Assembly (NCBI GenBank): GCA_964402425.1
Contig: CAYOCD010000001.1
Location: forward strand, 82,934 to 146,933
Direction of reading: 5' to 3'
Length of the DNA: 64,000 nucleotides
Source of the DNA: an uncultured Gammaproteobacteria bacterium
GTDB taxonomy: Bacteria > Patescibacteriota > Patescibacteriia > UBA9934 > GWF2-40-263
The position numbers and the translations under genes were made by a program. Of this stretch, positions 16,503 to 48,100 are shown in pieces. A model generated the notes under the pieces. The model did no database searches and was not told where the DNA came from. It worked only from the letters and a program-made list of their open reading frames with translations. Each line of letters starts with the position of its first letter. Within the stretch, counting starts at the first letter, position 1.

Positions 16503-16519
16503 ACGTCTAGACCTACTGA

Positions 16520-18148
16520 CTAGAAATTACACGCAGGAACGTCCTTGGCGGTCAGATCGTACTCGATCGTTACACCAACAACAACATTACCAGGCGTTGC
16601 TTTTTTGATTTCAATATTCGTGAAGCTGTCGATAAGCTTCACGAATGTCGTCTCGACCCACACAAACTTCGGATCGAAATCGATCTGGACGAATACACTG
16701 ATGTGTAGGGTCTTACCCTGCTTGAGTTCGGCACACACATCCGCCATGAGAGGCGAAGACGCGACCTTCTCGAACGTCATGACGATCTTCTTGTCCGCGA
16801 TCGCATCACCAAAGTAATACGCCACGCCACACGAATATCCGTCAGACTCCTTGTAGAGATCAGGGTTTGAGCATGTCATTAGGAATTTTCGATCTTCCCA
16901 CTGACACCCCTTGGCACCTTGGCAAAAGTCCTTGGTGAAATTATTACCATCTTCGCAGAGCGCGTCGGGTTCCTTGGGAGGCATCGGGAGGCCGGTGCAG
17001 GCGTTGTCTTTGCCGTCGCAGAGCTCGGGCGCGCCTGGATAGACATCCGAATCCGTGTCATCACAGTCCGCATTCGGACCAAACGCGAGCGCCATGCCAG
17101 CCGGAGCCGAACACGCGAGCGTGGTCTTAGATGTCGGGTTTCCATACCCATCACCGTCTGCATCCATGTGATAAACCATCTGCACACCATCGTCGGTCTG
17201 CCCATTGCAGTTGTCGTCGACTTCGTTGCAGGTTTCAACCGCACCGGGATGAATCTTCTTTCCGGTAACCGGCGTGTCGTTGCAGTCCGTGCTCGTGGTA
17301 GTTGCACCAACGGGCGCGTCACATGCTTCAACCTTCTTATCAGGAGCGCCGTAGCCATCGCCATCGTCGTCCTTAAAGTAGGTCTTTTTAACTTTGTCAC
17401 CATCGTCGACTAGCTTGTTGCAATCGTTGTCGACGTTGTCGCAGACTTCCGGGTTGCCCGGGAAGCGCTTGGCATCGGCATCATCGCAATCAGTGCCTGA
17501 AACAACGACACCCTTTTCAGGCTTGCAAGCCTTGACGGGCTTACTCACTGAACCATGACCATCAAGATCCTGATCAACGAAGAAATCACCCTTCACACCT
17601 TCGTCGGTCTGCCCATTGCAGTTGTCGTCGATGTCCGGCGTGTCGCAAGTTTCCTTCATTCCAGGATTGATGATCTTCAGGTTGTCGTTGCAGTCGTCGC
17701 CGTTTGCGACGTACTTCAGAGCGAAGCCACTGCACGCACCCGACAATTCACTTGCCGGATTGCCATAGCCATCACCATCATTGTCGAAATACCACGACTT
17801 CGTGGTGTCGTCGACCTTATAGTTACAGTCGTTGTCGACCTTGTCGCACTGCTCTTTTGCGTCCGGGTGGACGCTTGGAGCGGCATCATCGCAATCGTTC
17901 ATGTTCAAGACGTGCCCCGGAGGGGGCGCGTTCTTACATGTCACGTATGGCTTCGCAGGATCGCCAAAGCCATCCTTGTCGCCATCGAGGTAAAACGTCT
18001 GCTCGACGCATGGCGTCGGAGTCAGGTTGTTCGAACCTCCCGCGACGAAATCGTCATCGGCCGGAAAGACACCTGTGCCAGAGGCACAGCCAGCGATAGC
18101 CAACGCCATCGCAAGACACTGGAAGCGCAGCTTCATCGCGGTCTCCAT
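16520..18148 (-). CDS. Cys/Asp-rich repeat lipoprotein (MopE-like repeats; lipobox AIAGC).
   Basis: MKLRFQCLAMALAIAGCASG. Repeats CDxVDNDCNxKVDD and CDNVDNDCNKLVDDG. High G+C. Confidence 0.6.
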   Translation of the reverse strand: METAMKLRFQCLAMALAIAGCASGTGVFPADDDFVAGGSNNLTPTPCVEQTFYLDGDKDGFGDPAKPYVTCKNAPPPGHVLNMNDCDDAAPSVHPDAKEQCDKVDNDCNYKVDDTTKSWYFDNDGDGYGNPASELSGACSGFALKYVANGDDCNDNLKIINPGMKETCDTPDIDDNCNGQTDEGVKGDFFVDQDLDGHGSVSKPVKACKPEKGVVVSGTDCDDADAKRFPGNPEVCDNVDNDCNKLVDDGDKVKKTYFKDDDGDGYGAPDKKVEACDAPVGATTTSTDCNDTPVTGKKIHPGAVETCNEVDDNCNGQTDDGVQMVYHMDADGDGYGNPTSKTTLACSAPAGMALAFGPNADCDDTDSDVYPGAPELCDGKDNACTGLPMPPKEPDALCEDGNNFTKDFCQGAKGCQWEDRKFLMTCSNPDLYKESDGYSCGVAYYFGDAIADKKIVMTFEKVASSPLMADVCAELKQGKTLHISVFVQIDFDPKFVWVETTFVKLIDSFTNIEIKKATPGNVVVGVTIEYDLTAKDVPACNF

Positions 18149-18282
18149 TTAAAGAGTGTACTGGCGCAGGCCCGCCCGTACGTTGTTGTGTGTAGATCAC
18201 GGCCTGATTCCATGGCTTAATTAGCACTAGAATCAGCTCACAATCGACCCGGAAAAATATCATGTTTTGAGAAAAATGTCAA

Positions 18283-18413
18283 GGGAAAAGGGCGGAAGTG
18301 GCAGAAAAGGCGGAAGAGGCGGAAAGGAACACAAAGTGGGAAGCGCAAAAAAATGCGCGGAAACAGACATTCCTTTCCGCCCTTTCCGCCTCTTCCGCCC
18401 TTTCTGCCTTTCC
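18283..18413. repeat. GA-rich palindromic element A: arms of about 45 bp (GGAAAAGGGCGGAAGTGGCAGAAAAGGCGGAAGAGGCGGAAAGG / inverted copy) around a 40-nt loop containing the mini-hairpin GCGCAAAAAAATGCGC.
   Basis: Seen in sequence, between two lipoprotein genes. Confidence 0.7.
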
Positions 18414-18478
18414 TTAAAAAATGAAAAATCCCTCAGTTTCTTGCGAAACCAAGGGACGAGTTGAGGGGTCCAGGGCTG

Positions 18479-19438
18479 CTACTTGCAGTCGTGGATTTCG
18501 AGGTTGACCGAGCAGCCGCCTTCAGGGGCAGGCCACTTCTTGACGAGCTTTGTGACGTCGAGGATCGAGCCATCGCCCTTGACCACGAAGATCACGGCGT
18601 CGGGGTTGATCTTGTCGTCCATGCAGAGCCACTCGCTTGCCGGCTTGCCGTGGGCCGTGTTGAAGCGGACACCGCAGGCGTTGCCGTCGGGAACGAGCGT
18701 GAAGACGATGTTGTTGATCGACTCCTGGAACCAGACCCAGTCCTTGCCGATGTCCGCTTGCGCGTAGTACGGCACCGCCATGATCTTCTGACCCATCTTC
18801 TCAGACGGCCAGGAGACGACGAGGGCGAAATTGTCGCCGAGGAGCAGGTCGTCGAACGACTCGCGGGGGGCACAACCTTCGTCGGTCTTGCCGTCGCAGT
18901 CGTTGTCGATGTCGTCGTCACACGTCTCGGTCGCGTCCTGGTTCAACCAGAAGCCGTCGACCTTGCCGTCACTGTTGGCATCCTTCGCCGAGTCGTTGCA
19001 GTCGCCCCCGTGAGCCGAATAGCCCTTGGGAACTTCTGCACCGATGCACACGGTGGTCACTTCCTTCGACAGGCCGTAACCGTCCTTGTCGCCATCGAAG
19101 TAAACTTCTTCGGTCAGGCCTTCATCGGCATGACCGTCGCAGTTGTTGTCGATGCCGTCGCAGATCTCCACGGCGTACTTGTTCACCGCCGGGTTGGTCT
19201 CGTCGCAATCGTTGCCGAGTGCGGGCGAGAAGCCGTCGCCATCCAAGTCACCGTAGACCTTCTTGGGGGTCTCGGTCTCGGTGGGCGTGGTCGCAGCCGG
19301 CGGGTCGACAGTGCTGGTCGTCTCGTCGGTCGCACCTTGCTCGTCGTCCGTCGCATCGAAGACACCGTTGCCACTTTCGCAGGCACCGAAGGAGATAATG
19401 GTCGCGATAGCCAGAAACAGCTTGAGAAACGTATTCAT
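18479..19438 (-). CDS. Cys/Asp-rich repeat lipoprotein (lipobox SFGAC; repeats CDGIDNNCDGHADEG, DNDCDGKTDEGC).
   Basis: MNTFLKLFLAIATIISFGACESG. Paralogous to neighbouring genes. Confidence 0.6.
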   Translation of the reverse strand: MNTFLKLFLAIATIISFGACESGNGVFDATDDEQGATDETTSTVDPPAATTPTETETPKKVYGDLDGDGFSPALGNDCDETNPAVNKYAVEICDGIDNNCDGHADEGLTEEVYFDGDKDGYGLSKEVTTVCIGAEVPKGYSAHGGDCNDSAKDANSDGKVDGFWLNQDATETCDDDIDNDCDGKTDEGCAPRESFDDLLLGDNFALVVSWPSEKMGQKIMAVPYYAQADIGKDWVWFQESINNIVFTLVPDGNACGVRFNTAHGKPASEWLCMDDKINPDAVIFVVKGDGSILDVTKLVKKWPAPEGGCSVNLEIHDCK

Positions 19439-19815
19439 CTGAACTTCCTTTCCCTTGCGGGAGTCTTATCTTGCCTGACAGAACTTTCTGCCCGACCTGA
19501 CTCGACACTCCCCGCAGGGAGATTTTTTTGTTGAAACACCGGGAATCCGGGACAGCAGAGGCTTTTGAGACCCCTACGAATGTGAGTTTGGGTACTGATA
19601 CGAGAATTTCTTTCGATTTATCATCTACATCATCTAGTTCACGCAAACACACATTTGTAAGGACCTCGTTTTCAAGCCTTATTGCTCATTTAGTAACAAG
19701 CAACTATACCATAAAATCGCACTTTTGTCAAGGGTTGCTGGATGCAATTTGGAACAAATATTGGGCTTTTTTGATTATTTGGCTATTTTTGTCAGGGATT
19801 ATGAGACAAAGTAAA

Positions 19816-19920
19816 AGCTGGAGAGGCGAGAGAGGCTGGAGATGCTTGAGAGGCTTTAGAAACGCGCTTTTCCCCTCCCCTTCGGCCTCTCTCGCCTCTC
19901 CAGCCTTTCAAGCCTTCCCC
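19816..19920. repeat. GA-rich palindromic element D (GAGAGGCGAGAGAGGCTGGAGATGCTTGAGAGGC ... GCCTCTCTCGCCTCTCCAGCC). Preceded by the TTTTGTCAGGG leader motif at about 19786.
   Basis: Seen in sequence. Shares the core GATGCTTGAGAGGCTTTAGAAACGCGCTTT with element E. Confidence 0.7.
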
Positions 19921-19997
19921 CCCCTCCTCTTTCCCAAAAAAAACGACCCCACCTCAACAAAGAGATAGGGTCAGAAAGTGGGCCGAAATTGGCCGAG

Positions 19998-20963
19998 TTA
20001 CGGGGTGGGGCACGAGGCGCCGGGCTTGGCGACCAGGAAGTACGCCGAGCAGCCGCCGTCCTTGAGGACCGTCTTCACGCTGGACGTATTATACGTCTGG
20101 CCGAACAGCGTGGCCGTAATCGTGGGTTGCGAGTTGAGAACTGCCGTCGAACTTCCCATGCAGAGCCACCCTTGTGGCTGGTCCACATTGAAGCGCAAAT
20201 ACGTGCAGTTGCTCTGAGTGAGATTGCCAAGGTCGACGCTGAGCGATGCATTCATCGTCCAGGCCTGGGGCTTCCAGTCCGTGAACGAGGTATCGGGCGT
20301 AATGCCATAGCTCAAGCGGCGGTAGGCGCTGTCCGGGTACGTCACCGTGAGGGTGTTGTTGCCCGTAGGTGCCGTGCAGCCTTCGTCGATCAGACCGTCG
20401 CAGTCGTTGTCTTTGCTGTCGGCGCAGACTTCCGCGGTTGCTACGCATGGAGCGACGCAACCTTCGTCCGCCTGGCCATCGCAATCGTTGTCCTTGTTGT
20501 CGCCGCAGACCTCATTGGTCGGGACGCACTGTGCGGCACAACCTTCGTCAACCTGCCCGTTGCAGTTGTTGTCGACGTTGTCGCCGCACTTCTCCGGAAC
20601 ACCCGGATTTACGTTGACGTTGTTGTCATTGCAGTCGCCCTGCTTGGGGGCGGTACTGCAGTAGCCATCGCCGTCACCGTCGGTGCAGTTCGTCGAGACA
20701 CACTGTGACTGGTAGTCGTTGCAGCAGTCCTTGTTGACCACACACTCGGCGTCGCATTGACATTGTGCCTTGTTGTTGTACGCCGTGCCACACTTGCCTT
20801 GGCAAGTGGGCGCCGGCGCCGTGTCGGTCGAGTCGCGGCCGGAGGCCGTCGAGTCGACCGAAACGGCCGTGTCGGACTCCTCGTTGATGTCGAACGGCTC
20901 GTGAGAGCCACAGGCCGCCACGATGGCGAGGGAAAGAATCAAACAAGCGGGGATGTAACGCAT
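19998..20963 (-). CDS. Cys/Asp-rich repeat lipoprotein (lipobox IVAAC; repeats CGDNVDNNCNGQVDEGC, CGDNKDNDCDGQADEGC, CADSKDNDCDGLIDEGC).
   Basis: MRYIPACLILSLAIVAACGS. Three near-identical 25-aa repeats in tandem. Confidence 0.6.
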   Translation of the reverse strand: MRYIPACLILSLAIVAACGSHEPFDINEESDTAVSVDSTASGRDSTDTAPAPTCQGKCGTAYNNKAQCQCDAECVVNKDCCNDYQSQCVSTNCTDGDGDGYCSTAPKQGDCNDNNVNVNPGVPEKCGDNVDNNCNGQVDEGCAAQCVPTNEVCGDNKDNDCDGQADEGCVAPCVATAEVCADSKDNDCDGLIDEGCTAPTGNNTLTVTYPDSAYRRLSYGITPDTSFTDWKPQAWTMNASLSVDLGNLTQSNCTYLRFNVDQPQGWLCMGSSTAVLNSQPTITATLFGQTYNTSSVKTVLKDGGCSAYFLVAKPGASCPTP

Positions 20964-21163
20964 GAAACACTCCAGTCGGACGCATGAAGCGCGCGACGTT
21001 CTGTTGCCCGGCCCTGATGCCGGAGCAGTTGCCTGCTTTCACCGAAACCATATCGGCTGCATCAGGACAAACATCGATACAACAATGTTCTATCGATATT
21101 TATCACGACACAATTTATGTAAAATGTACCTTAATGAACGTTGAATAGTATCACAATTCTCTG

Positions 21164-21288
21164 ATTTTGTCAAGGGGAAGGGCTGAAAAGGCGAGAGAGG
21201 CTTGAGATGCTTGAGAGGCTTTAGAAACGCGCTTTCTTCGACATCTCAAACCTCTCAAGCCTTTCTTACAGCCTTCCCCAAAAAAAAC
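21164..21288. repeat. GA-rich palindromic element E with leader TTTTGTCAAGGGG. Core shared with elements D, F and H.
   Basis: ttttgtcaaggggaagggctgaaaaggcgagagaggcttgagatgcttgagaggctttagaaacgcgcttt...acatctcaaacctctcaagcctttc. Confidence 0.7.
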
Positions 21289-21362
21289 AGCTCTCTCAAT
21301 CCATTCCCGAAGGAAATTCATGAGAGAGCCGAGAGGGCCACCAACGTCGCGAGAGTCTGCGA

Positions 21363-22901
21363 CTACTTGGGGCCGAAGCCAAAGTTGATGCCGGCCGAGA
21401 AGGCGGCGAACGGGCTGGTATCGCTACCCTTGCCCGCGCCGTAACTCTCGACACCCACGGTCGCACGAGCTTGGAAGCCAACCTTGAAGTTAGTGCCGGA
21501 AGTCGTGGAGACGTAGGAGAGGCCAGCACCGCCGCCGCGCGAATAAGAGTTCGCGCCAACGACCGAGCCTCCCGCATCGTGCTGAAGGAACATGGCGTGG
21601 ACACCGAAGCCGTAGAGCGCCTTGAAGGTCACTTCCGCACCACCTTGGTAGGCGATGCTCGATTCCCAACCCTTCGGACCGTCATCCGCAAGCGGAAGCA
21701 GGTTGAAGAAGCCGTTGAACCGACCAGTCTCGTTGGCGTAGCCCAGGTTCAGACCGACGTAGCCACCCGGTGACGTGTTGCCACGCATCTGGTAGACCTT
21801 GCCGTTCTTGGTGACGTGAGCGTCGTGACCGAGGAGCGCTGCACCACCGAGCGAAAGCTCAACGAGGACACCCTGCTTCTCCAGTTCCGTGACGGTCGCG
21901 ATGACCTGGTCGGCCTTTGCTTCAGCTTCGGTCGAACGATCGATCGCGGCTTGCGCCTTGGTGTCGATCGCCGCTTCCGCCGCCTTCGCACGAGCTTCCT
22001 CGTTCGCGATGGCCGTCTTCTGCTCCGCGAGGGCCGTGTCAAAAGCACTAAGCTGCTCGGTGTGACCCTGCAGCGCCGCGTCGAAGGTGTTGACCTTGGC
22101 CGAAGCCGCGTCCGCAACCTTCTTCGCATCGTCCGCCGTGGCCTGAGCCTTGGCGATCGGAGCGCTGTAGTCGACGCCGCGCACTGCCTTGGCCGAAGCC
22201 TTGGGAGCGGGAGCAGCGGGATCTGCCGGCGTCACCGAGCCCGGGAGGGGCGCGGCGGCGGACGGAGTGCGACGAACAGCCTTGGCCTTAGGAGCGCCGG
22301 GGCAGGTCGGACACGCGGTGGGACGAACCTTCTTGCACTTGTCCTGATCCTGCAGCGTCGGGCTGTACGAGTCAGGAACGAAGTTCAACACTCCGTCACA
22401 ATCCACATCCACCGAACGGTAACCAGTTGCCGGAGTCAGCTTGCCACCCGTGAAGTCCACGGTGCAGTTGCCAGCCTTGCACGCCAGGATGTCCTTGAGG
22501 AGCCGAAGCTCCGAGGACGACTTGGGCGTGATCGAACGGCCGAGGCCACGCGCGAAACGCGCAACCACATCCGGACCACCGACGACGTTCAGCGACGCAG
22601 TGTCGCCGCTCGCCGTCTCCCAAGCACTCACCTTGCAGTCATTGTTCAGGCCATCGTCCCACAACTTGGGGTCGGCGGCCTCGTTGATGCCGGGGTTGAT
22701 ATCGGCATGCTGATCGTCGCAGTCACCACACTTAATGGCGCCGGGGGGCAGAACATTGCAGACAGCGTCGCACACTGCGTACTTGTCGCCATCATCATTC
22801 TTGCACTCCACCGGAGCCGCGAAAGCGGACGAGGAAACGATCGTGGCCGCGAGGGCCAACAACAACAGGGAAAACTTCTTCATCGGGAACTCCTTGGGCA
22901 T
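21363..22901 (-). CDS. Secreted protein: Cys-rich N-terminal module, Ala/Lys-rich coiled-coil, C-terminal Gly/aromatic-rich beta-strand domain of about 170 aa (possible beta-barrel-like anchor).
   Basis: Signal peptide MKKFSLLLLALAATIVSSSAFA. Middle region KAQATADDAKKVADAASAKV...EARAKAAEAAIDTKAQAAI. C-terminus has alternating hydrophobic patterns and ends FGFGPK. Confidence 0.5.
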   Translation of the reverse strand: MPKEFPMKKFSLLLLALAATIVSSSAFAAPVECKNDDGDKYAVCDAVCNVLPPGAIKCGDCDDQHADINPGINEAADPKLWDDGLNNDCKVSAWETASGDTASLNVVGGPDVVARFARGLGRSITPKSSSELRLLKDILACKAGNCTVDFTGGKLTPATGYRSVDVDCDGVLNFVPDSYSPTLQDQDKCKKVRPTACPTCPGAPKAKAVRRTPSAAAPLPGSVTPADPAAPAPKASAKAVRGVDYSAPIAKAQATADDAKKVADAASAKVNTFDAALQGHTEQLSAFDTALAEQKTAIANEEARAKAAEAAIDTKAQAAIDRSTEAEAKADQVIATVTELEKQGVLVELSLGGAALLGHDAHVTKNGKVYQMRGNTSPGGYVGLNLGYANETGRFNGFFNLLPLADDGPKGWESSIAYQGGAEVTFKALYGFGVHAMFLQHDAGGSVVGANSYSRGGGAGLSYVSTTSGTNFKVGFQARATVGVESYGAGKGSDTSPFAAFSAGINFGFGPK

Positions 22902-24588: not shown

Positions 24589-25677
24589 CTATTTATTATA
24601 TTCCCCCAAAACAACCTCGATTATTTTCTTTTCTCCAGCACGGTCAATCGTGAGACTGATCATATCTCCCGGACGTGTAGACAAAAGACGTTCACTTAAT
24701 CCACGCGAATAATTTATCTCTTGTTCGTCCATCGCAAGAAGAATATCTCCTTCCCTTAATCCAGCCTTTGCTGCTGGACTTCCCTTTTTTATTGCAGCTG
24801 GACCAGCAATATACGCTCCAACCTGATGCCCACGACGCAAGGCATCAGAAAAACCAACTGTGTGTGCAAGATCAAGATAAGTAATTCCAAGTGCTGGGTG
24901 AGAAAGATTTTTCTTTTCAAGAAGCGCATTGAGCGAAGGTAAAACGTGCTCAAATGGAACCAAGATTACTTGTGAATCTTTTTTAGATGCAAATCCAACA
25001 AATGATCCAGACAAATCAAAAATTGGAGCGCTTGCGCTATTTACACTTGTAGAAAGCAACAGATTACGTGAAGGAATATCCGACGACAGAAGTGTTCCTT
25101 GTTGCCAGAGATGTTGAGCAACGAACGCTTGAGAGAATTGATCTACGCGCATACTCACAAACAACTGATCCCCCACAGACAAATCAAACGCATTTCCAAA
25201 ACGAACCACTGATAAATTGTTCGCTGCGCATTTCAAAAAAACAGTCTGCGTTAATGGATCAACCACAACACGCGTAACATCAAGCACCTGATCTTTTATT
25301 TGAACGGAAAGCGCATCTGCAGAAAGTTGCGAAAGCATGGGGGCAATAATCCATCCATCAGAAGTCACCACAACCCCTGTTCCAATCGATGCATCTTGTG
25401 TATATCCATACGCTGTTTTTGCCGACGTTGGAAAAATAGAAACAACACTCGCAAGCGTCACATCTGAAAAATGCTTCGTTGCTTCTGCATAGGAATTAGG
25501 GAATGCTTTTGGACCAGTTTCATCCAAATTCAATGGACGTGTTAATTGATTCAATTGAAGTGCATAATCAGACAAATACGAATTTGTCATGGCTGTCGCA
25601 AGCACTCCACTTGCTGCACCAAGAGCAATCGATAAGAGAACAACATGAGCGATTCTGGAGGTGAACATTTTTTTCAT
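24589..25677 (-). CDS. HtrA-like trypsin-fold plus PDZ protein that appears catalytically inactive (pseudo-protease).
   Basis: The PDZ region (GSPAAKAGLREGDILLAMDEQEI) is conserved. The His motif is replaced (GTGVVVTSDGWIIAPMLS versus GTGFFVTQDGLILTNRHVV in the genuine HtrA at 36412). The Ser motif reads NSASAPIF versus GNSGGPLIN. Confidence 0.5.
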   Translation of the reverse strand: MKKMFTSRIAHVVLLSIALGAASGVLATAMTNSYLSDYALQLNQLTRPLNLDETGPKAFPNSYAEATKHFSDVTLASVVSIFPTSAKTAYGYTQDASIGTGVVVTSDGWIIAPMLSQLSADALSVQIKDQVLDVTRVVVDPLTQTVFLKCAANNLSVVRFGNAFDLSVGDQLFVSMRVDQFSQAFVAQHLWQQGTLLSSDIPSRNLLLSTSVNSASAPIFDLSGSFVGFASKKDSQVILVPFEHVLPSLNALLEKKNLSHPALGITYLDLAHTVGFSDALRRGHQVGAYIAGPAAIKKGSPAAKAGLREGDILLAMDEQEINYSRGLSERLLSTRPGDMISLTIDRAGEKKIIEVVLGEYNK

Positions 25678-29088: not shown

Positions 29089-29239
29089 GTTTTATCCTTA
29101 AGAACAAGAGCAAAACGTGACAGATCGATGACAGAAGGATAGTGCAAAAAATCAATTTTGTCCAGTCATCATTGACAAAAACCATTTTTCCGGATATCTT
29201 GAGACGTTTCTTGGCTGCAAACAACAGGAGGTCCTGCTA

Positions 29240-30340
29240 ATGAAACATGTGCCTTTCTTGACGACTCTTTTCACGATCATTGTTTTTTCGATGCTCATCT
29301 CGAACCTGGCTTTCGCAGAACTTCCGCCGCACATGAGCGGAATGTGCATGTTCACGTTCAAGTCGAGCGTGTCGGCTGCAGAAAGCCCGCAAGCGGCGCG
29401 CATATATCTGCAGCTGATAAAAAACAAGGGCTACCCTTGTGTGATCATCAAGAGCCACGACGGCGACAACTGGGGTACAAAGGTGAACGGCAAATTTGTG
29501 CCGGCATTTTCAAAGCACCTGGTTGACGCGGGGCATGAGCTCAACATGCGCGTGTACAGCTACTTCACTGCTCGACTGAATCACGACTCCGTGATCGAAG
29601 AATCCGTCATTCTCGCCGAACGCACACTCAACATGGGTGCCGACGGCGTTGTCATTGACGATCTTGCACTCGAACGCACGGGAGTCGATCCAACAAAGTG
29701 GAGAAAGGTTTTTCCTCTGCTTCGTGCAATGACAGACAGACACAAGGGAACCATCTTGGCTTCGTCTACACACCCACACCAATCGGCAAACGGAAGGTTC
29801 CCGACACTCTGGGGTATTGCCTTCGAGCACTCGGACTTTTTCCTTCCCCAAGCCTACTGGATGGAATTTCTTGCCTACAAAGATGGTAAGGCTGTGAAGA
29901 TGACACCTCAGGATGCACTCGCCTATGCACAGGCGCAATTCGATATTGTGAAGACACGTTTTCCGAACGCGAGAAACTGCAAGCTTATCCCCATCGGCAG
30001 AACGTATGGAAAGAACGTGACGGCCGAACAGGTCAAAACGTTCATCCAAACGGCCATGCCCTTCTACAAAGGCGCCGGTCTGTTTGTGATTGAACAGGAA
30101 CCGCCAAAGGGTGGATGGAACGCAATCAAAGATGCGGTAACGGCATTCAATAAGCCGGGCCGAACGGTAAAATCCATTTCGCCGTACGACCAAGTCAACG
30201 ATCCTTCTGAAACGGAAATTGTCGACTCTTCCCCCACTCCCAAGAAACCCGCAACGGAAAAAATGGGTGGAACCAAAAAAATCGATCAGCCGATTCGGAA
30301 ACAACCCGACTCGTCCTCTCGATGTGGAGCCTGTCCCTAA
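29240..30340 (+). CDS. Secreted protein with possible TIM-barrel hydrolase-like core (MGADGVVIDDL motif), Pro/Lys-rich linker and C-terminal SRCGACP motif.
   Basis: Signal peptide MKHVPFLTTLFTIIVFSMLISNLAFA. Higher G+C than flanks. Terminal residues ...DSSSRCGACP-stop. Confidence 0.55.
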   Translation: MKHVPFLTTLFTIIVFSMLISNLAFAELPPHMSGMCMFTFKSSVSAAESPQAARIYLQLIKNKGYPCVIIKSHDGDNWGTKVNGKFVPAFSKHLVDAGHELNMRVYSYFTARLNHDSVIEESVILAERTLNMGADGVVIDDLALERTGVDPTKWRKVFPLLRAMTDRHKGTILASSTHPHQSANGRFPTLWGIAFEHSDFFLPQAYWMEFLAYKDGKAVKMTPQDALAYAQAQFDIVKTRFPNARNCKLIPIGRTYGKNVTAEQVKTFIQTAMPFYKGAGLFVIEQEPPKGGWNAIKDAVTAFNKPGRTVKSISPYDQVNDPSETEIVDSSPTPKKPATEKMGGTKKIDQPIRKQPDSSSRCGACP

Positions 30341-30393
30341 TCTTAGCACCCTTCGACTTCGCTCAGGGTGCTTTTTCTTTTTCTCCAAAAAAA

Positions 30394-30834
30394 TTATTGA
30401 CGCAAATGTTCTTTCATCTGACGATCAACATCGCGCTTCTTAATCGCTTCTCGCTTTTCATATTTCTTTTTTCCCTTTGCAACCGCAAACACAAGCTTTA
30501 CCAAATTTCCTTTTGTGTAGATACGAAGCGGAACAAGTGTTAATCCTTCTGTCTGTTTTTTCCCCATCAGTCGTTTGAGCTCACGCTTGTGAACCAAGAC
30601 TTTTCGGTCTCGATCTGACTGAACCTCTTGATTCCCTGCTGGCTTATATGGACTGATGAATACATTCTTAAGCCAGAGTTCGCCGTTATGAATATGAAGA
30701 AAGGCTCCCTTTAACTGGACATGCCCGGCTTTTGCCGACTTCACTTCCCAACCCTGCAACACCAAACCTGCTTCAAATTCTTCTTGAAGATCAAAGTCAA
30801 AACCAGCTTTTTTGTTCGTGGCGAGGCTCGGCAT
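30394..30834 (-). CDS. smpB: SsrA-binding protein SmpB. Likely start MPSLATNKKA at 30834; the listed ORF extends 20 codons upstream.
   Basis: LATNKKAGFDFDL...EAGLVLQGWEVKS...GAFLHIHNGELWL...RDRKVLVHKRELKRL...LTLVPLRIYTKGNLVKLVFAVAKGKKKYEKRE is a textbook SmpB pattern. Confidence 0.8.
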   Translation of the reverse strand: MPSLATNKKAGFDFDLQEEFEAGLVLQGWEVKSAKAGHVQLKGAFLHIHNGELWLKNVFISPYKPAGNQEVQSDRDRKVLVHKRELKRLMGKKQTEGLTLVPLRIYTKGNLVKLVFAVAKGKKKYEKREAIKKRDVDRQMKEHLRQ

Positions 30835-30909
30835 ACCAGCAGAGTATAACGAAACGCTTGATATTTTGAAAGTTCTTTTGTATAGTAGCGACAACTTATT
30901 CTATCAATT

Positions 30910-30958
30910 CGGCCTTTTAAGCCTCTCCGGCCTCTCTCGCCTCTCAAGCCTTTCCCCA
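30910..30958. repeat. Solo arm (pyrimidine-rich strand CTCTCGCCTCTCAAGCC) of the GA-rich palindromic element family, in the smpB/infC divergent region.
   Basis: cggccttttaagcctctccggcctctctcgcctctcaagcctttcccc. Responsible for the spurious N-terminal extension of the infC ORF. Confidence 0.6.
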
Positions 30959-30961
30959 CCT

Positions 30962-31513
30962 ATGCGCATCCACCGCCACCGTGCCCGCCAATCCAACCTT
31001 CATGTCCAAAAATTTCGGATGAATGAAAAAATCACCGCACCGGAAGTGCGTGTTGTTGATGATGAAGGAAAACCACTCGGAATCCTGAAAACAGAGGATG
31101 CAATCGTAATTGCAAGAACAAAAGAACTTGATTTGGTTGAGGTTTCCCCTAAAGCAGAACCTCCTGTTTGTAAAATTCTTGATTACGGGGCATTTAAATA
31201 TCAAAAAGAAAAAGAAGCCCGAAAACAAAAAGCTCAATCAAAAGAAGTAGACACAAAAGGCATTCGTCTCACCTTCCGCATTGGAGCTCACGACTTTGAC
31301 GTTAGATTAGCTCAAGCGGGAAAATTTCTTGACCGAGGCGATAAAGTAAACGTAGAACTTCCATTACGAGGTCGTGAAAAAGCCCACAAAGACGTCGCGG
31401 AAGCGGTCATTACACGTTTTGTCGAAAGCTTAAAAGCCAAATACAACCTTCGTATTGAACAGGCGGTCACCTATCAAGGTGGAAAACTTACGGCTATCGT
31501 AACAAAAGCCTAA
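30962..31513 (+). CDS. infC: Translation initiation factor IF-3. Start uncertain: ATG at 30962 or ATG at 31019 (MNEKITAPEVRVV). IF-3 genes often use unusual start codons.
   Basis: INEKITAPEVRVVDDEGKPLGIL...ARTKELDLVEVSPKAEPPVCKILDYGAFKYQ...RLTFRIGAHDFDVRLAQAGKFL. Followed by rpmI-rplT, a conserved operon. Confidence 0.75.
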   Translation: MRIHRHRARQSNLHVQKFRMNEKITAPEVRVVDDEGKPLGILKTEDAIVIARTKELDLVEVSPKAEPPVCKILDYGAFKYQKEKEARKQKAQSKEVDTKGIRLTFRIGAHDFDVRLAQAGKFLDRGDKVNVELPLRGREKAHKDVAEAVITRFVESLKAKYNLRIEQAVTYQGGKLTAIVTKA

Positions 31514-31545
31514 TTTTTTCCTCACTTTTTTACTAACACCCCATC

Positions 31546-31574
31546 TTGACGCTTTTCACTCCTTCTTATATACT
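31546..31574 (+). promoter_or_regulatory. Internal sigma-70-like promoter: TTGACG, 17-nt spacer, TATACT. Lies upstream of rpmI.
   Basis: cttgacgcttttcactccttcttatatact, then GGAG and ATG at 31590. Confidence 0.35.
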
Positions 31575-31589
31575 TCCGGAGACTTTCCT

Positions 31590-31787
31590 ATGAAAACGAA
31601 AACACACCAGGCGACTGCAAAGCGCCTCAAAGTAACAAAAACAGGAAAAGTGATAAAGCGCTATGCAGGGCAGGATCATTTTAATAGCCGAGATCCAGGC
31701 AAAATCACCCGCAAAAAACGCCGAGACACTTCCCTTTCTGAGTCTTACACAAAGACCGTTAAGATGTTAATCCAGAAACAGGGATAA
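31590..31787 (+). CDS. rpmI: 50S ribosomal protein L35.
   Basis: MKTKTHQATAKRLKVTKTGKVIKRYAG, basic, 65 aa. Positioned between infC and rplT. Confidence 0.75.
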   Translation: MKTKTHQATAKRLKVTKTGKVIKRYAGQDHFNSRDPGKITRKKRRDTSLSESYTKTVKMLIQKQG

Positions 31788-31813
31788 TTACAGAACGGGA
31801 ATACTAAAATCAT

Positions 31814-32158
31814 ATGCCTCGAGTAAAACGTGGAACCCAGCATGTTAAGCGCCGCAAAAACTTGCTGAAAAAAGTAAAAGGAATGATGTGGAAGCGCAAA
31901 TCAAGCATCAAGCTTGCGCGCCCTGCTTTTTTGAAGGCGGGTGTAAATGCCTATCGCGATCGCCGCAATAAGAAACGTGCGTTTCGTCGCCTTTTCCAAG
32001 TTCGCATCAATGCTGGAGTTCGACCGTTCGATCTCAGCTACAGCAAATTCATGGATATGGCAAAAAAGGCAAACATTGCATTGGATCGCAAAATCCTTTC
32101 AACTCTTGCAAAAGACCACCCATCCGTATTTGCAAAGATTGTAGAAAAAGTGAAATAG
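31814..32158 (+). CDS. rplT: 50S ribosomal protein L20.
   Basis: MPRVKRGTQHVKRRKNLLKKVKG...YRDRRNKKRAFRRLFQVRINAGVR...LSYSKFMDMAKKANIALDRKILS. Confidence 0.85.
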   Translation: MPRVKRGTQHVKRRKNLLKKVKGMMWKRKSSIKLARPAFLKAGVNAYRDRRNKKRAFRRLFQVRINAGVRPFDLSYSKFMDMAKKANIALDRKILSTLAKDHPSVFAKIVEKVK

Positions 32159-32208
32159 CGCACCACTATTTCATCCTGAGTGCAACGAAGGATCCCTTCA
32201 AAAAAAGA

Positions 32209-32236
32209 ATCACCTAGAAACAGGTGGTTTTTTGTT
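32209..32236 (+). terminator. Rho-independent terminator after rplT (stem CACCT/AGGTG, T-run).
   Basis: aatcacctagaaacaggtggttttttg. Confidence 0.4.
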
Positions 32237-32365
32237 TTCACAATATCTCATGCACAAACAACACATCTTGACCTTTCCTCTTTTCCATGTTAGTTTTACG
32301 TGTCCAATCAATACAGGACTTCATGATAATCATGTCATGAATCACACATTTCACATGGAGGTGTC

Positions 32366-33175
32366 ATGCCGCGGACGTTCTTTCTTTCTCCAGACCCAAA
32401 GCCAAACCATCGATTTGAGGCAACCTTTGTCATCGAAGGGACTGATGATGACAAAAAACCTCTAGCGGTTGTTGGAGATGAATACATCATCGCTGCACCG
32501 CCAGGATGTATTCTCTTTGAGACACATTCGCTGAAAATCAAAAATGTAGATGAGAAATCAAACCACCGAGCAGAACTGGTTTTTGTCTCTCGGGAAGGCT
32601 TTACTCAAAGCGGTCAATTCAACCTGGTGTGCTCACTTGCACACGACCCGAGTCTGCGTGAAGAAACACTTGTAAGTGTTGCCACAGCCTTAAAACTCGT
32701 CGCACCGCCACGTGTCATCATCAATATTCCTGACAACGAAACCCCGCCTGCAAAGACGGAAAATCCCATTCCAGCAGCAACTCCCGTTGTTGTCACCCCA
32801 GCTGTCGTCGCTCCAGTTGTTGCGGCGCCTATCGCACCACCAGCTAGATCTTTTCGTAAACAAATCATCACAGCCTTTCTTGTAGGACTGGCATTGTCCA
32901 CAATGGTCGGTACTATTGTGATCAAATTCGATTCTATCTTGAAATCGCTTCCGCCTTTCTCAACCCACGCACGCGTGATTCAAAAGACAGAGCCTGTCGT
33001 CATTCCTGTCGTAACTGAGACTCCACAAGATGCCGTACAGGAACCTGAAGCGCCTGATGTTGTAGCAATACAACCAACACACACCCAGCAAGATACCGCG
33101 GCTCCAGAGCCAGAAGTCGTGATTCCAACCACCCCACCTCCCAATCCAGCTTCAAGATGCGGCGCTTGTCCGTAA
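32366..33175 (+). CDS. Hypothetical bitopic protein: N-terminal 130-aa domain, Pro/Val/Ala-rich segment, one TM helix, Pro-rich tail ending in SRCGACP.
   Basis: Strong SD GGAGGT 7 nt upstream. TM IITAFLVGLALSTMVGTIVI. Terminal ...PPPNPASRCGACP-stop. Confidence 0.5.
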   Translation: MPRTFFLSPDPKPNHRFEATFVIEGTDDDKKPLAVVGDEYIIAAPPGCILFETHSLKIKNVDEKSNHRAELVFVSREGFTQSGQFNLVCSLAHDPSLREETLVSVATALKLVAPPRVIINIPDNETPPAKTENPIPAATPVVVTPAVVAPVVAAPIAPPARSFRKQIITAFLVGLALSTMVGTIVIKFDSILKSLPPFSTHARVIQKTEPVVIPVVTETPQDAVQEPEAPDVVAIQPTHTQQDTAAPEPEVVIPTTPPPNPASRCGACP

Positions 33176-33275
33176 CAGATAAACTCCTCCTTGCACCAAT
33201 CGATCCGATTTGGTGCTTTTTATTTCAGGATGGTTTATTGCCAAAACCCCTCAGATCGACTATCCTCACTCACAT

Positions 33276-34324: not shown

Positions 34325-34858
34325 TTAGGGAACATAGAGTCTTTTATCGAGCAACTGACTTCGACACTCAAGTTCAGTTATGACAGTTGCATCCTTGCAA
34401 AGTTCCACAAACCATTGATCTTCGTTTGGTGTTTTTCGATCAGCTTTTTCTGTATCATCGAAAATAAGTACCCGACAAGGCACGCCTTTGTACGCCCCAT
34501 GATCAAACAAGATTCGCGTAAGCGCGTCATGCGGCGCATTCACAAAAACAAACAGACGATCTGGCGAATACCCTTGAATGAGCGCCGCCTGATTATCGAT
34601 TGCAGATTTGAAGGAATAACAACCACCATGCACAAACTCAACAAGCACAGTTGCGCGCCCCATAGGCTTACAATCCTTTGGAGAACGCGCATCGCACTCT
34701 CGTTTCAGCCAGTCGTTCAGGGCACGATTCTCCCACGTCGGCTTACACTTCACAACAGGAGGAAGCGGCTCTATAGGAGGTTGAGATGTACAAGCGATCA
34801 AACTGAGCAAGAACAATAAAGCACAAACAGCACGCATGGATTTATCTCCCTTTTTCAT
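34325..34858 (-). CDS. Lipoprotein, hypothetical (lipobox LSLIAC), Cys-rich.
   Basis: MKKGDKSMRAVCALLFLLSLIACTSQPP. Start among M1/M6/M13 uncertain. Confidence 0.45.
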   Translation of the reverse strand: MKKGDKSMRAVCALLFLLSLIACTSQPPIEPLPPVVKCKPTWENRALNDWLKRECDARSPKDCKPMGRATVLVEFVHGGCYSFKSAIDNQAALIQGYSPDRLFVFVNAPHDALTRILFDHGAYKGVPCRVLIFDDTEKADRKTPNEDQWFVELCKDATVITELECRSQLLDKRLYVP

Positions 34859-34988
34859 CAGTCTTATATACACCGCCTTCTTTATGAAGACATGTGATCC
34901 TATTCGATTTTGGGATTTGTGTCAATAACCTTCCGATGATATCAAAACAAAAAAGTGAACACTTCGTGTCCACTTTTTTGTTTTGTCA

Positions 34989-36411: not shown

Positions 36412-37665
36412 TTACTTCTTTTCTTGCTTGGCTTCTCCTAAAACGATCGTTGTATCAAACAACTTACCGTCTCTAATATATTGAACCTTGATTTTATCAC
36501 CTGATCTGTGAGGAGCAATGAGTTCCGCAAGTGCTTTTCCCTGTTCAAACTCCACCCCATCAACAGCAATGATAATGTCATGTTCTTTTAATCCCGCCTC
36601 TTCTGCAGGACTATTTTTGATCACGGCATCTTCTGATGCAGCATTCCCTTTTGCCAGTTTTGCGCCAAAAGTAAATGGAGGTTTGGCATTCTCACCCCTC
36701 ACAAACACATAGCGAACCCCGATCCATGGACGAGCAATATATCCGATTGTTTTAACATCTTCAATTGCACGTTTCACTTGATTGATAGGGATTGCAAATC
36801 CAACAGCTTGACCATCAACGCTCACAGCTGTGTTTATCCCAATCACCTCTCCTAGCAAGTTGATGAGTGGGCCACCTGAATTTCCAGGATTGATGGCCGC
36901 GTCTGTTTGAATCGCTTTTTCAATCACTTCTGAACCACCGATATTAAACCCAGCTGTTACACGGCGATTCATTCCAGAGACAACTCCTTTTGTCACAGTA
37001 TTGCGAAATTCTGAAAGGGTATTTCCAATCGCAATAACCGTTTGTCCAATGCGGATCTTATCCGAGTCTGCAAGTGTTACGATAGGAAATTTTGGAAGTT
37101 GATTTTCTTCTGACGAAGGTTCGACACGCAACAACGCGATATCAAGAAACATATCTGTGTCCACAAGTTTTGCAGGATATTCTTTTCCTTCATTTGTGAC
37201 AATGAAAAACTGTGTCCCTGGTGCGTCTACAACATGACGATTCGTTAAAATCAATCCATCCTGCGTCACAAAAAAACCGGTTCCACTTGAAACATCAACC
37301 ATTTTTAACCCCTCTTCATCTGAAAGCGTTTCATTAAAGAAAAACGCACGAGAGCCATACGGTTGTTGACGAAACGATTTAACAACATCCGCACGCGATT
37401 TTCTGACAATGACACTAACAACAGCTGGTGTTACTTCATCCACAACATGAATCGTTGCGCTTTCTTCTTCTATCAAATTAACAATAGTGCTTGCATTTTT
37501 TGGATCAATATTTGTTCCTACTTTATATTGTGCCACAACGCTTGGATAGACACTTGCGACAATCCACGCACCGAATCCTCCAAAAAAAAGACTTATTCCT
37601 ACACACAACAAAATAAGACGAGAAGTATTCATACAACATGTTTTACTTAGAAAGTTTTTTCCCAA
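36412..37665 (-). CDS. htrA: HtrA/DegP-family serine protease (trypsin fold plus PDZ), catalytic triad intact.
   Basis: GTGFFVTQDGLILTNRHVV (His), DIALLRV (Asp), GNSGGPLINLLGEVIGINTA (Ser), PDZ GSPAEEAGLKEHDIIIAVDG. An N-terminal TM anchor is present; exact start is ambiguous (M1 or M12). Confidence 0.8.
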   Translation of the reverse strand: MGKNFLSKTCCMNTSRLILLCVGISLFFGGFGAWIVASVYPSVVAQYKVGTNIDPKNASTIVNLIEEESATIHVVDEVTPAVVSVIVRKSRADVVKSFRQQPYGSRAFFFNETLSDEEGLKMVDVSSGTGFFVTQDGLILTNRHVVDAPGTQFFIVTNEGKEYPAKLVDTDMFLDIALLRVEPSSEENQLPKFPIVTLADSDKIRIGQTVIAIGNTLSEFRNTVTKGVVSGMNRRVTAGFNIGGSEVIEKAIQTDAAINPGNSGGPLINLLGEVIGINTAVSVDGQAVGFAIPINQVKRAIEDVKTIGYIARPWIGVRYVFVRGENAKPPFTFGAKLAKGNAASEDAVIKNSPAEEAGLKEHDIIIAVDGVEFEQGKALAELIAPHRSGDKIKVQYIRDGKLFDTTIVLGEAKQEKK

Positions 37666-45162: not shown

Positions 45163-48100
45163 TTAATTTACGGGACAATAGGTGAATTCAATATTACTCA
45201 GAGTGACAGATGCACTTGTTGGATTCAATTTAACATTAATTGGAAGAGAAAATGGAGCATCCTGACAGATAAACTTGCTTGGAAGTGGCAACTTCAATCC
45301 GTTTCCGATCTCAAGCAAAGAAGTTCCTGTTTGTGGAAGTGTATATTTTCCATTTGCATCTTTAAATGTTGCTGCAATTAACGACACGGTATTTCCAGCA
45401 TTCAAAAGTGAACTTGATGAAGAAACATTTGCCGTAATTCCGACCCCAACTCGGCATGCTGGAAGCAACAAACTTGCACGATCTGGTGTTTTTCCTTCTG
45501 TATTTTCCAAACTAAATAAGGTGATACTGCTTGATGGTTGAGATTCGGCTACATTTCCTTGCACTTGAAGAGCAACTTTTTGGAATGCGGTCGGACAAGA
45601 ACTATTACAACTCGATGAACAAGTTGGCAGTACACATGTTCCTACACCTATACATTTTTCATTATTAGCCGTATTGCAATCACCGTTCCAGTTACAAGTA
45701 CTACCGGATGTTTCACAATATCCATCACAATTATTTTGATAAGCTGCGCATTTTTTTCCATTCTCCCCACGAAGAGAGCCTCCATTACAAGTACCCACAA
45801 TGCGACATGAATACCCCTTATCACAGGAAGTTCCGTGCCACGTTGATGTTGAACCATCATCTTTCTTCCCGTTAGCTGTGCCATCTGAGGTTAGTCCGAC
45901 ATCTTTTGAATCACACGGACCCTTTAGATCCATTTCATCCGCACTGATTGATTTTGTACATGTTCCATTTAACTTCGTACCATCACAATATTCGCCACCA
46001 TTGATTGCTCCATCTCCACAATACGGACCAGATTGTGTTTTGTACTGACAGTATTGATTACAGAAGTTACAGCTTGATCCGTACGCCGCATTACAAGCGA
46101 TTCCGTTTGCCTTACCGCTGTCACACGACTCGATTCCAACGTTTACAAAGTTATCGCCACACACGTTTGTCTTACAGGCGTTTGTACAACTGTCATTGCT
46201 GGAACTGTTTCCGTCATCGCATTCTTCTGTTCCTTCTTTCTTTCCATTACCACATTGTTGTGGACCACCAGCACACGCACCCCATCCACCACCGGCAAGA
46301 TTTGTGATCCACTGACAGCTGTTTGAAGATGGATTGTTGTAATTCTGACAGGTGCGTGTTCTGGTGAGGTCATATTGTTCTGCTGAACATTTTCCACCTG
46401 CCCCACAAGAAGCATCATCTGTACAAATCGCACCAATTGTTGTTCCGGCGGTACAAATCTTTGCTTTTGCACAAGCCGCAACAGGACATCCAGATGAAGC
46501 CGTACATTTTGTTCCATCGTTATTCAATGCACCAGCATACGTTTCTGTATTTCCATCGCATTTTTCTGATGAATCATTAATCAAATTGTCCCCGCACATT
46601 GGTCCTGGAGCTTTACACTCTGCAGTACAATTTTTTCCATCTTTGTCGTAATTTCCGTTATAGGTTGCACAATGATTACCGGACTTTGCCCAACTTGTTC
46701 CCGCAAGTGTCGACCAATTTGATGGCGTTCCGCAATCACATTGTTCATTCCCCGCGAGGTACCCGTCACCACACGCAAAATTAGAAACAACTTTACAATC
46801 TTTACCACAGTGGCCGTACGTACCATTCAGCGCAGTACCATCATCACAGACTTCACCAAGCGCTTTATCAATCACACCATCTCCACAAGAAAATGGCTTA
46901 CATGTTCCACCGGCTTTTTTTGCAGCATCCTCAGCGGCTGCATCTGTTGCATAATTTTTACAATCATTTTTACAAGTAACATTGATGAACCCTGCGTTGT
47001 TTGCGCAAGCAATCGATTTGACTTCACCAATTTCACAATCTTCACCCACACCCTTTACTCCATCACCACAAATCGTAGAGCTTCCAAAAACAGTTGCGTT
47101 GCAATAAGCGGAAGTTGAGACAAATCCTGGCAGGAGATTTGCAGGAGCTTTCCCGTTTAGATAAGCCGCTTTAATGGTCGCTTGATCACCAGATGCGTCT
47201 ATTTTATTGTTCCACGCAACCGTACTGTATTCCAATTCTGTTGTGAGGACATATGCTTCCCCACCAAAATTTTGATATCCGTACACATGAGAACCGTTTG
47301 GACAAAGAGATTTTCCTTGTGCGCTATTCCAACACGTTGCGGAATCATATCCTTCACCTACATTTTTACACTGTCCCCAGAATTGGTTGAGCGGATCTGT
47401 TGGCAGAGCACCCCCAACCTCATTTCCAAGCGTACTGTTCCAAGATGGCCAGATACTGTTACTTACAGAAGGAACAAACGTTCCTGCTTGAATAGTTGGA
47501 TAGCTCGGGATACATGTTTCTGTTCCTGGACAAGCAGAATTCGCTCCTGTACCCGCTTTACTGTTTTGAGAAACAACACAGGCTTGACTCTTGGTTACCG
47601 CACAACGACCGTTTGTGTTTCCGTATTTTTCAAATGTGGTCACCATCTCTGTGACATCTGTCAATCGTTTTGTGTCTCTGATCAATTTTTGTTTGTCTGC
47701 ATCACAGAACATGTTTGGATCAGCTACTGCACATTCCGCATTTCCTAATTTTGGATTACAAACTTTATCCGAAACGGAACATTTTCCATCTGGCTTACAT
47801 TGATCCAAACAGTCTCCATCCCATGAACATGTGGTAAACGGACCACTTGGTGGAACATAGGCACTTCCACTCTTACAAAGACCAACGTGCGACACTCCAG
47901 TTACACCAGTATCATTCGCGTTTAATCGGAAATTTTGTAAGACAAGATCAAAAATCTGTTGCGCATCTTTTCCGGCATCTGCGTTAAATGAGATAACGTA
48001 AATATTTGAATAGAGATTTGATCCGTTGCGATTTGCCGCTGCTGCATAAATCGTTGTTCCTGTTTGCACAGCTTCATATCCATCCAACTTGGCCGCCTTT

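Follow-up and report, generated by a model that had tools for sequence, protein, structure and literature searches.

Two neighbouring genes of an uncultured bacterium of the Patescibacteriota, here referred to as A and B, encode otherwise unrelated envelope proteins that end in the same seven residues, SRCGACP, and in related genomes both ends have been exchanged in step for other, unrelated sequences. The genes lie in a 64,000-nucleotide (nt) stretch of contig CAYOCD010000001.1 (assembly GCA_964402425.1, positions 82,934 to 146,933, forward strand), hereafter the window. The initial annotation of this stretch regarded the shared ending as an invariant tag on exported proteins. The general idea of a functional C-terminal tag stands, but its invariance does not: at least six unrelated tails can replace one another, in both genes together, and SRCGACP is one allele of this co-switching system. 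As far as observed, only two or three genes, close to one another in a narrow clade of Candidatus Uhrbacteria, belong to the system, which fits no described class. The tail is best read as a specificity-matched tag for pairing or docking outside the cytoplasm, a mechanism that we infer from the comparisons below.

Open reading frame (ORF) A, of 366 amino acids (aa), terminates in ...QPDSSSRCGACP-TAA and ORF B, of 269 aa, in ...PPNPASRCGACP-TAA, SRCGACP followed by a stop codon being the terminus common to both. The features of the two genes are as follows, in window coordinates.

29240..30340, forward strand: gene A, predicted secreted 366-aa protein composed of a signal peptide, a barrel resembling those of glycoside hydrolases (GH) with the triosephosphate isomerase (TIM) fold, a disordered linker and the tail
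29240..29317, forward strand: signal peptide of A, MKHVPFLTTLFTIIVFSMLISNLAFA, with predicted cleavage after AFA, read from the sequence
30200..30316, forward strand: disordered Pro/Lys/Ser/Thr-rich linker of A, residues 321-359, with a predicted local distance difference test score (pLDDT) of 35-42
30317..30337, forward strand: tail of A, SRCGACP, with stop codon TAA at 30338..30340 (sequence and codon comparison)
30345..30372, forward strand: terminator hairpin and T-run after A, fold -13.8 kcal/mol, z -4.1
30346..30371, forward strand: terminator core GCACCCTTCGACTTCGCTCAGGGTGC after A, 26 nt, single copy in the window
32366..33175, forward strand: gene B, predicted bitopic membrane protein of 269 aa composed of an immunoglobulin (Ig)-like sandwich, a Pro/Ala/Val linker, a transmembrane helix, a Pro/Thr/Val linker and the tail
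32852..32947, forward strand: predicted transmembrane helix of B, residues 163-194, core AFLVGLALSTMVGTIVI (model helix, Kyte-Doolittle peak 2.25)
33152..33172, forward strand: tail of B, SRCGACP, with stop codon TAA at 33173..33175 (sequence and codon comparison)
33193..33216, forward strand: terminator hairpin and T-run after B, fold -11.9 kcal/mol, z -4.0

Outside the C-terminal stretch, no similarity between A and B was detected by BLASTP, in agreement with their initial description as unrelated proteins with one ending. The tail is encoded by TCT CGA TGT GGA GCC TGT CCC in A and by TCA AGA TGC GGC GCT TGT CCG in B, so that six of the seven codons differ, all synonymously and with no replacement, and conservation at the peptide level, as first proposed, is borne out. 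Both genes are also richer in G+C (0.514 for A and 0.494 for B) than their neighbours (0.37-0.45), as had been noted. A six-frame search of the whole window revealed no CGACP beyond these two ends, and among ORFs of 80 aa or longer in the window, this is the only pair in which more than four of the eight terminal residues agree. Each stop codon is followed within 5-20 nt by a stable hairpin and T-run (z about -4), indicating that the two tails are true protein ends. Chance is ruled out by the comparative data, in which A and B share their tail type in 11 of the 12 genomes, with six types represented.

Exact copies of A and B were found on about 20 metagenome contigs with an unchanged gene order, namely an AI-2E-family permease gene (reverse strand), A (forward), smpB (reverse), infC, rpmI and rplT (forward) and B (forward), followed by genes for an RluB-like pseudouridine synthase (forward), a lipoprotein (reverse) and pyruvate kinase (reverse). 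All named homologues of A and B derive from metagenome-assembled genomes of Candidatus Uhrbacteria, and their distribution is narrow, with about 30 protein clusters. Scanning a genome collection with an A profile yielded five loci, the species of the window lying outside that collection. Besides the frequent ending [RKPH]CGACP, alternative endings recur in the homologue lists of both A and B. Pairing of the two ends was assessed at 12 Uhrbacteria loci, including the window, with syntenic loci drawn from genomes and assemblies; the sequence inspected comprised the 64 kb of the window and about 20 kb per related locus. Their tails are listed below.

Window: A SRCGACP, B SRCGACP
L141: A SRCGACP, B PKCGACP
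L145: A SRCGACP, B GHCGACP
L146: A SRCGACP, B PKCGACP
L147: A PRCGACP, B PKCGACP
L017: A ARCGACPP, B KPCGACP
L016: A KKKIRFSPENEQSFKF, B KKKIRFSSENEQNFTF
L013: A HAPSGSDRSWPVKL, B HAPSGAERQWEVNLD
L014: A GGGMQEWPGH, B GGGGMNEWPGH
L138: A PMRSIKVRY, B VMRSIKIEY
L142: A NPHHLPSL, B GSYHLPSL
L143, the exception: A TRCGACP, B NPYLRRAKRKR

The tails of A and B match at 11 of these 12 loci, for which random permutation gives a probability of 7!/12! = 1e-5, and they fall into six unrelated types: CGACP, MRSIK(V/I)xY, KKKIRFSxENEQxFxF, HAPSGxxRxWxVxL, GGGMxEWPGH and HLPSL. In L017, a masked run of N at about 13400..13470 artificially breaks the frame of gene B, the true end of which (...PQSKPCGACP) can be read after the gap. 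Switching is most directly illustrated by L016 and L141, which are equally close to the window in their flanking proteins (SmpB 96%, L20 97-98%, AI-2E 94% and Wzz 98% identity): L016 carries KKKIRFSxENEQxFxF in both genes, whereas L141 and the window carry CGACP. Genomes that are about 95% identical in flanking housekeeping proteins can differ in tail type, with both genes switched. The types are chemically unrelated, comprising a cysteine pair, amphipathic strands ending in Tyr or Phe, and His-rich sequences, a diversity that is easier to explain by partners that match each other than by one conserved receptor. Since the tails are interchangeable and the types other than CGACP lack cysteine, the cysteine or metal chemistry that had been envisaged for SRCGACP cannot be the general principle.

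Within genomes, comparison of the A and B tails in sequence blocks chosen for matching peptides revealed 36 synonymous and 18 replacement differences, corresponding to proportions of differing synonymous (pS) and nonsynonymous (pN) sites of 0.71 and 0.10, respectively (binomial P 5e-12), and pN was 0 in all CGACP pairs. A and B are near saturation at the synonymous sites of their tails in most genomes (pS 0.5-1.1), and the peptide is nonetheless retained, which shows that selection acts on the peptide. DNA also passes between the two genes. The 26-nt terminator core GCACCCTTCGACTTCGCTCAGGGTGC located behind A in the window is found behind B, and not behind A, in L141 (10913..10938), and a near-identical copy with one mismatch accompanies the B gene of L146; in L142, the DNA of the tail and terminator is almost identical in A and B. 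Sequences of this kind indicate that exchange between the 3' ends of A and B occurs and that 3' modules move between the genes. Because such exchange coexists with conservation of the peptide, conversion probably spreads a tail and selection retains it.

The tail is also separable from the enzyme-like domain that bears it. The catalytic domain of A occurs as deep allelic classes (46-50% identity) whose distribution is independent of the tail: L138 and L140, near-identical genomes that share a signal peptide and tail, have catalytic domains that are only 48% identical; the A domains of L143 and L016 are 86% identical and their tails differ; and those of the window and L146 are 46% identical, with nearly the same linker and tail. 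The tail thus goes with the genome and the other carrier, and not with the attached enzyme. In a three-way nucleotide alignment with L141 and L016, the edges of gene A (29170..30375) form sharp recombination borders, inside which identity to the window is 93-95% for L141 and 54-67% for L016, compared with 80-90% in the flanks; the C-terminal half of B could not be aligned in any comparison. In this alignment, gene A behaves as a recombination cassette. Between the permease gene and A, L141 (6275..6787) and L145 (3929..4441) harbour a 170-aa gene that is missing at about position 29170 of the window, and the same alignment suggests that L016 has this insertion too.

A third carrier was identified in L142, where a small uncalled gene (C, about 8240..8675, forward strand) lies between rplT and B. 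Its product combines three hydrophobic helices, a Pro/Thr linker and a Lys-rich stretch, and ends in NRNPHHLPSL, the tail type of A and B in that genome. Gene C was originally missed, the gene caller having annotated another frame. The window contains no counterpart of C, and apart from C no further ORF with the local tail was found in the 64 kb inspected here or in the approximately 20 kb of each related locus.

Scanning the DNA of metagenome contigs with the pattern [STPA]-R-CGACP-TAA returned at least 120 matches and was uninformative on further carriers. No Uhrbacteria genes were among the matches listed, which consisted of chance or off-frame matches, one short repeat and a Cys-rich family. 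The repeated short element among them reads ...FCPVGARCGACP. A sequence translating as ...GPARGNKKEPDRFCPVGARCGACP recurs on many unrelated soil or sediment contigs (e.g., L018, L023, L026 and L030) within very short open frames; it probably represents a conserved element, non-coding or RNA, with a fortuitous match to the pattern. The Cys-rich family, also among the matches listed (L018-L137), comprises proteins of about 150 aa from organisms with approximately 70% G+C that end in ...YPSCGACP.

Protein A opens with a Sec-type signal peptide, recognized from features of the sequence: a basic N-terminus, a hydrophobic core (Kyte-Doolittle 2.3) and an A-x-A site that is conserved in the family alignment. 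Its presence places the tail of A outside the cytoplasm. The AlphaFold2 model (mean pLDDT 83.6) shows an alternation of strands and helices from residue 34 to 320 that has the arrangement of a (beta/alpha)8 barrel. Its top match in the PDB is the C-terminal domain of PgaB (GH153; Foldseek E 4.5e-9, template modelling score 0.46), followed by GH13, GH18, GH20, GH27/36 and GH53 barrels. The likeness of A to PgaB and to other TIM-barrel hydrolases concerns the fold, the sequence identity being 10-16% and the template modelling score no higher than 0.46; genes for Wzz, Wzy_C and glycosyltransferases lie near by. Neither A (E up to 1) nor ten of its distant relatives matched a Pfam or NCBIfam family, no relation to the GHL15 protein of the same window was detected (hhalign probability 0.6%), and neither membership of a described GH or GHL family nor catalytic acids could be assigned to A. 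Its homologues form 21 clusters, all Uhrbacteria-like; an exhaustive profile search revealed a single cluster at 50% identity, with distant relatives devoid of linker and tail.

Linkers rich in Pro, Lys and Thr precede both tails, as first described, and that of A contains six Pro, six Lys, five Ser, four Asp and four Thr among 39 residues. This linker is completely replaced among orthologues and cannot be aligned between distant ones, yet A orthologues with as little as 40% identity (P0019) retain CGACP; conservation in orthologues, the check proposed for the motif at the outset, was thus found. In the models, the tails of both A and B lie in disordered regions (pLDDT below 50).

Protein B lacks a signal peptide and opens directly with the Ig-like sandwich. 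Its AlphaFold2 model comprises seven strands between residues 3 and 105 (pLDDT 72-89) and a helix at 163-194, the rest being disordered, and about 70 disordered residues rich in Pro, Thr and Val separate the transmembrane helix from the tail. Foldseek searches with the sandwich returned generic Ig-like matches (transglutaminase beta-barrel, SoxYZ and CARDB; E 5e-4 to 1e-2), and no Pfam or NCBIfam family matched B at E up to 1. Basic residues are more numerous on the N-terminal side of the helix (RSFRK), as they are in most homologues. Together with the absence of a signal peptide, this charge distribution suggests an orientation with the N-terminus inside and the C-terminus outside, in which case the outer part of B would be just linker and tail. 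The B family comprises about 12 clusters; a profile search gave three further sequences among the matches listed, low-complexity words having saturated the candidates. [RKPH]CGACP is retained in the B orthologues of six other genomes, the linkers of which are unalignable. The tail is the sole conserved element in the predicted outside portion, in keeping with a tether.

How matching tails might work can be pictured as follows. The last 5-17 residues of A and B would form a pairing tag on the outer face of the membrane, each at the end of a long flexible linker; the two tails would associate, and membrane-anchored B would tether at the cell surface a secreted and otherwise anchorless enzyme, A. 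The small protein C of L142, with its three predicted transmembrane segments, would do the same alongside B. In the CGACP type, association could involve two interchain disulfides or a metal ion held by four thiols. Precedents for such chemistry are the CPPCP core of the immunoglobulin G (IgG) 1 hinge and the CxxC of the Rad50 zinc hook, both of which are interchain cysteine clasps carried on flexible arms. They resemble the present case in that each chain to be joined bears CxxC(P) at the tip of an extended, Pro-rich segment; this likeness is at the level of the motif and holds for the CGACP type only, the other five types being without cysteine. Those types might pair through short strands or hairpins, or through His-mediated contacts. 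Only a match between the partners would count, which would leave a tail frozen within a lineage yet replaceable wholesale if both genes change. Direct association of the tails, tethering secreted A to membrane-anchored B and C, is the version that we tentatively prefer, as it requires the fewest coordinated changes, explains the use of unrelated tails and gives the outer segment of B a role.

Several points weigh against this preference. Cys-free peptides of five to eight residues rarely self-associate stably. The orientation proposed for B derives from simple rules (signal-peptide absence and flanking charge), and the B protein of L142 shows four hydrophobic segments, an arrangement in which its N- and C-terminus would lie on one side of the membrane. 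Choosing the blocks for their matching peptides biases the pN given above downwards. A receptor may be encoded beyond the approximately 20 kb inspected per related genome and the 64 kb inspected here. Finally, in the L143 clade, A keeps TRCGACP and B (3192..3965 in L143; P0031-P0033) ends in NPYLRRAKRKR; this polybasic end is conserved, occurs in three variants and accounts for the sole mismatch among the 12 pairs, which implies that the tail of A can persist without a matching B. One A protein, P0014, is also polybasic at its end (KKGGKHNKKKIRNR), and such endings hint that the C-terminus is in general an element of envelope retention.

These last observations bear on another explanation, according to which the tail is read by a shared, co-evolving extracytoplasmic partner or sorting enzyme encoded outside the examined regions. 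We regard this as nearly as likely as pairing, although doubtful in its own right. The reader of the tail could be a peptide-binding domain, a component of a surface layer or wall, a transpeptidase or a protease, and all carriers would go to the same place, a picture that is again possible rather than probable. Co-switching and selection on the peptide fit such a partner as well as they fit direct pairing, the three unrelated carriers of L142 resemble a small set of substrates, and an A protein with CGACP but no matching B is better explained if the tail of A has a partner of its own; the polybasic ends of P0014 and P0031-33 suggest a general role of the C-terminus in envelope retention, and the HLPSL and IPTL tails loosely recall motifs of the LPxT type. 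However, each switch would need at least three coordinated changes, the distribution of about 30 protein clusters is very narrow, and the inspected regions contain no candidate, PDZ proteins and other neighbours being indifferent to tail type.

Docking peptides at protein C-termini rank with the nearest functional analogues of the tails. The PDZ proteins deserved attention because ligands of PDZ domains and of tail-specific or HtrA-type proteases are recognized by their last residues and free carboxylate, as the tails may be; in several types the tail is an amphipathic strand with Tyr, Phe or Leu as its final residue, and the tails are true C-termini on disordered linkers. On the other hand, CGACP is an atypical PDZ ligand. 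Two such proteins, membrane-anchored or secreted, are encoded in the conserved neighbourhood (24589..25677, 362 aa; HtrA, 36412..37665), and their counterparts in one CGACP and one non-CGACP genome are equally 81-85% identical to those of the window. In the 362-aa protein, eight positions follow the tail pattern (window, L141 and L017 alike, L016 different) compared with 17 and 5 in controls; in HtrA, eight positions do so, with 13 and 4 in controls. These positions do not cluster in the PDZ domains of either protein and are no commoner than controls, so the counts do not support a PDZ protein as the receptor of the tail. No co-switching with tail type was seen in the other neighbouring genes.

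A sorting enzyme of a known kind is not indicated either. The signals of sortase, exosortase and rhombosortase, and the MYXO-, JDVT-, Synerg- and CGP-CTERM signals, are tripartite, consisting of a motif, a transmembrane segment and an Arg cluster. Like the tails, they combine a short C-terminal motif on exported proteins with a frequent Thr/Ser/Pro-rich low-complexity stretch before it, and the MYXO-, JDVT-, Synerg- and CGP-CTERM signals share invariant cysteines with the CGACP type. They differ in that a transmembrane segment and an Arg-rich cluster follow the motif, where here it is followed by a stop codon and a terminator, and in being spread widely across taxa with many proteins per genome, as opposed to at least six versions in one genus-level clade with two or three carriers seen per locus. 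No hydrophobic transmembrane segment follows the motif in A, B or any of the 12 related loci, and no basic cluster after such a segment occupies the extreme C-terminus, the tails ending in CGACP, VRY, FKF, PGH, PSL or VKL; the polybasic end of the L143-clade B proteins has no transmembrane segment after a motif. CTERM models of NCBIfam and TIGRFAM did not match A or B. With nothing following the motif, membership among sortase, exosortase, rhombosortase or myxosortase signals is excluded on the features tested, which counts equally against a shared partner of the sortase, exosortase or myxosortase type. No dedicated processing enzyme was found in the inspected regions, and the two or three carriers seen always occupy the same neighbourhood; nothing here points to the sortase-like system considered in the initial annotation. 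Its statement that SRCGACP is not a described signal agrees with our searches, as NCBIfam, Pfam, a full-text literature search for CGACP and related searches gave no relevant description.

Polymorphic specificity groups are well known from peptide signalling, in the agr groups, the PlcR-PapR pherotypes, Rap-Phr and ComRS, and by analogy the C-terminal 5-8 residues could be released by extracellular cleavage and serve several carriers as a common pheromone-like signal that is specific to the strain. Phr, PapR and XIP peptides and the agr specificity groups would be the models. The likeness lies in discrete, deeply diverged alleles among close relatives, in the co-variation of interacting parts and, for several of these systems, in an active part formed by the extreme C-terminal 5-8 residues of a secreted precursor; here too, the conserved part is exactly the last few residues after a basic or disordered stretch, and several genes encode the same peptide. 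Such a signal is nevertheless improbable. Instead of small pro-peptides, the carriers are a 366-aa enzyme-like protein and membrane proteins, all large envelope proteins with a functional appearance, and some tail types extend over 14-17 residues. Neither a small precursor nor a linked, co-varying receptor of the kind that characterizes RRNPP and agr systems was found, the carriers of 269-366 aa having conserved domains, and there is no nearby co-varying receptor or peptide importer.

It is most improbable of all that the matching tails have no function and arose neutrally through gene conversion or the copying of a 3' cassette of tail and terminator, because real as the exchange of 3' ends is (the 26-nt core behind A in the window and B in L141, and the nearly identical DNA of the tails and terminators in L142), the peptide is kept at near-saturated synonymous sites in most genomes, CGACP persists to 40% identity beside an unalignable linker, and the hairpin is no repeat, with one copy in 64 kb.

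Other candidates were considered and set aside. Lipidation of the CAAX or Rab type does not fit cysteines at positions -5 and -2, an extracytoplasmic A tail and other types that are free of cysteine. A role of the C-terminal Pro in ribosome stalling or transfer-messenger RNA tagging (smpB is adjacent), a heme CxxCH site and a redox swinging arm (there is a weak SoxY fold match) were each rejected, as the final residue of the other types is L, H, Y, F or D and the types vary between close strains. Donor-strand complementation of the Ig-like domain of B by the tail was rejected because the predicted topology places the membrane between the two, and an origin of tail and terminator as a repeat element conflicts with a hairpin that occurs once in the window and with saturated synonymous sites.

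The surrounding region is rich in envelope functions, with genes in the window for glycosyltransferases, a Wzy_C protein, a Wzz-like protein, PilM, FtsA, FtsZ and the two PDZ proteins. A 3217-aa protein (45163..54816, reverse strand) and a 636-aa protein (54827..56737, reverse strand) have a T4SS_pilin-like N-terminal segment followed by Ig-like domains (TIG, Big_5) and are probably large surface proteins of a kind common in genomes of the candidate phyla radiation (CPR). A G+C-rich island (13987..22901, reverse strand; 52-63% compared with 43% elsewhere) encodes five Cys-rich secreted proteins or lipoproteins with 12-61 cysteines apiece, four of which have putative metal-binding repeats of the MopE type (PF11617) and one a Somatomedin_B domain in addition; relatives of these proteins are found upstream of the Wzz-like gene in L013, L014 and L017. 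The lipoprotein encoded at 34325..34873 (reverse strand) belongs to a Cys-containing family ending in ...C.SQL.DK.LY.P, with tandem paralogues in L013, L017 and L141. One or two tandem copies are present depending on the genome, and the window and L016 appear to retain different paralogues. Co-variation of this neighbouring lipoprotein with the tail was dropped as a lead, being confounded by the variable presence of these paralogues.

CPR bacteria have very small genomes, and the building and decoration of their envelopes are little understood. Against this background stands a tag, conserved as a peptide on two or three unrelated envelope proteins, for which at least five replacements, all of them concerted, have taken place, and which has none of the defining parts of known sorting signals. 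In its furthest-reaching form, which we put forward as a possibility of doubtful standing, the tails would be self-recognizing address labels that clip an enzyme to a membrane tether, any short peptide able to pair with its own copy being suitable, whether through a disulfide or metal clasp in CGACP or through strands or hairpins in the other types; the label would be a module exchanged among strains by recombination and giving rise to strain-specific pairing types at a hypervariable surface locus. If the tags pair or dock to one partner, they would represent a new and unusually compact way of retaining a secreted enzyme at the cell surface; if they are labels that recognize themselves, they would illustrate a new minimal principle of surface-protein retention in an ultra-small episymbiotic bacterium. 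In either case, the six natural tag types would also be potentially useful as orthogonal peptide tags. Finally, the cassette-like exchange of enzyme domains between close strains points to a locus under diversifying selection, for which contact with hosts or phages is a plausible setting.

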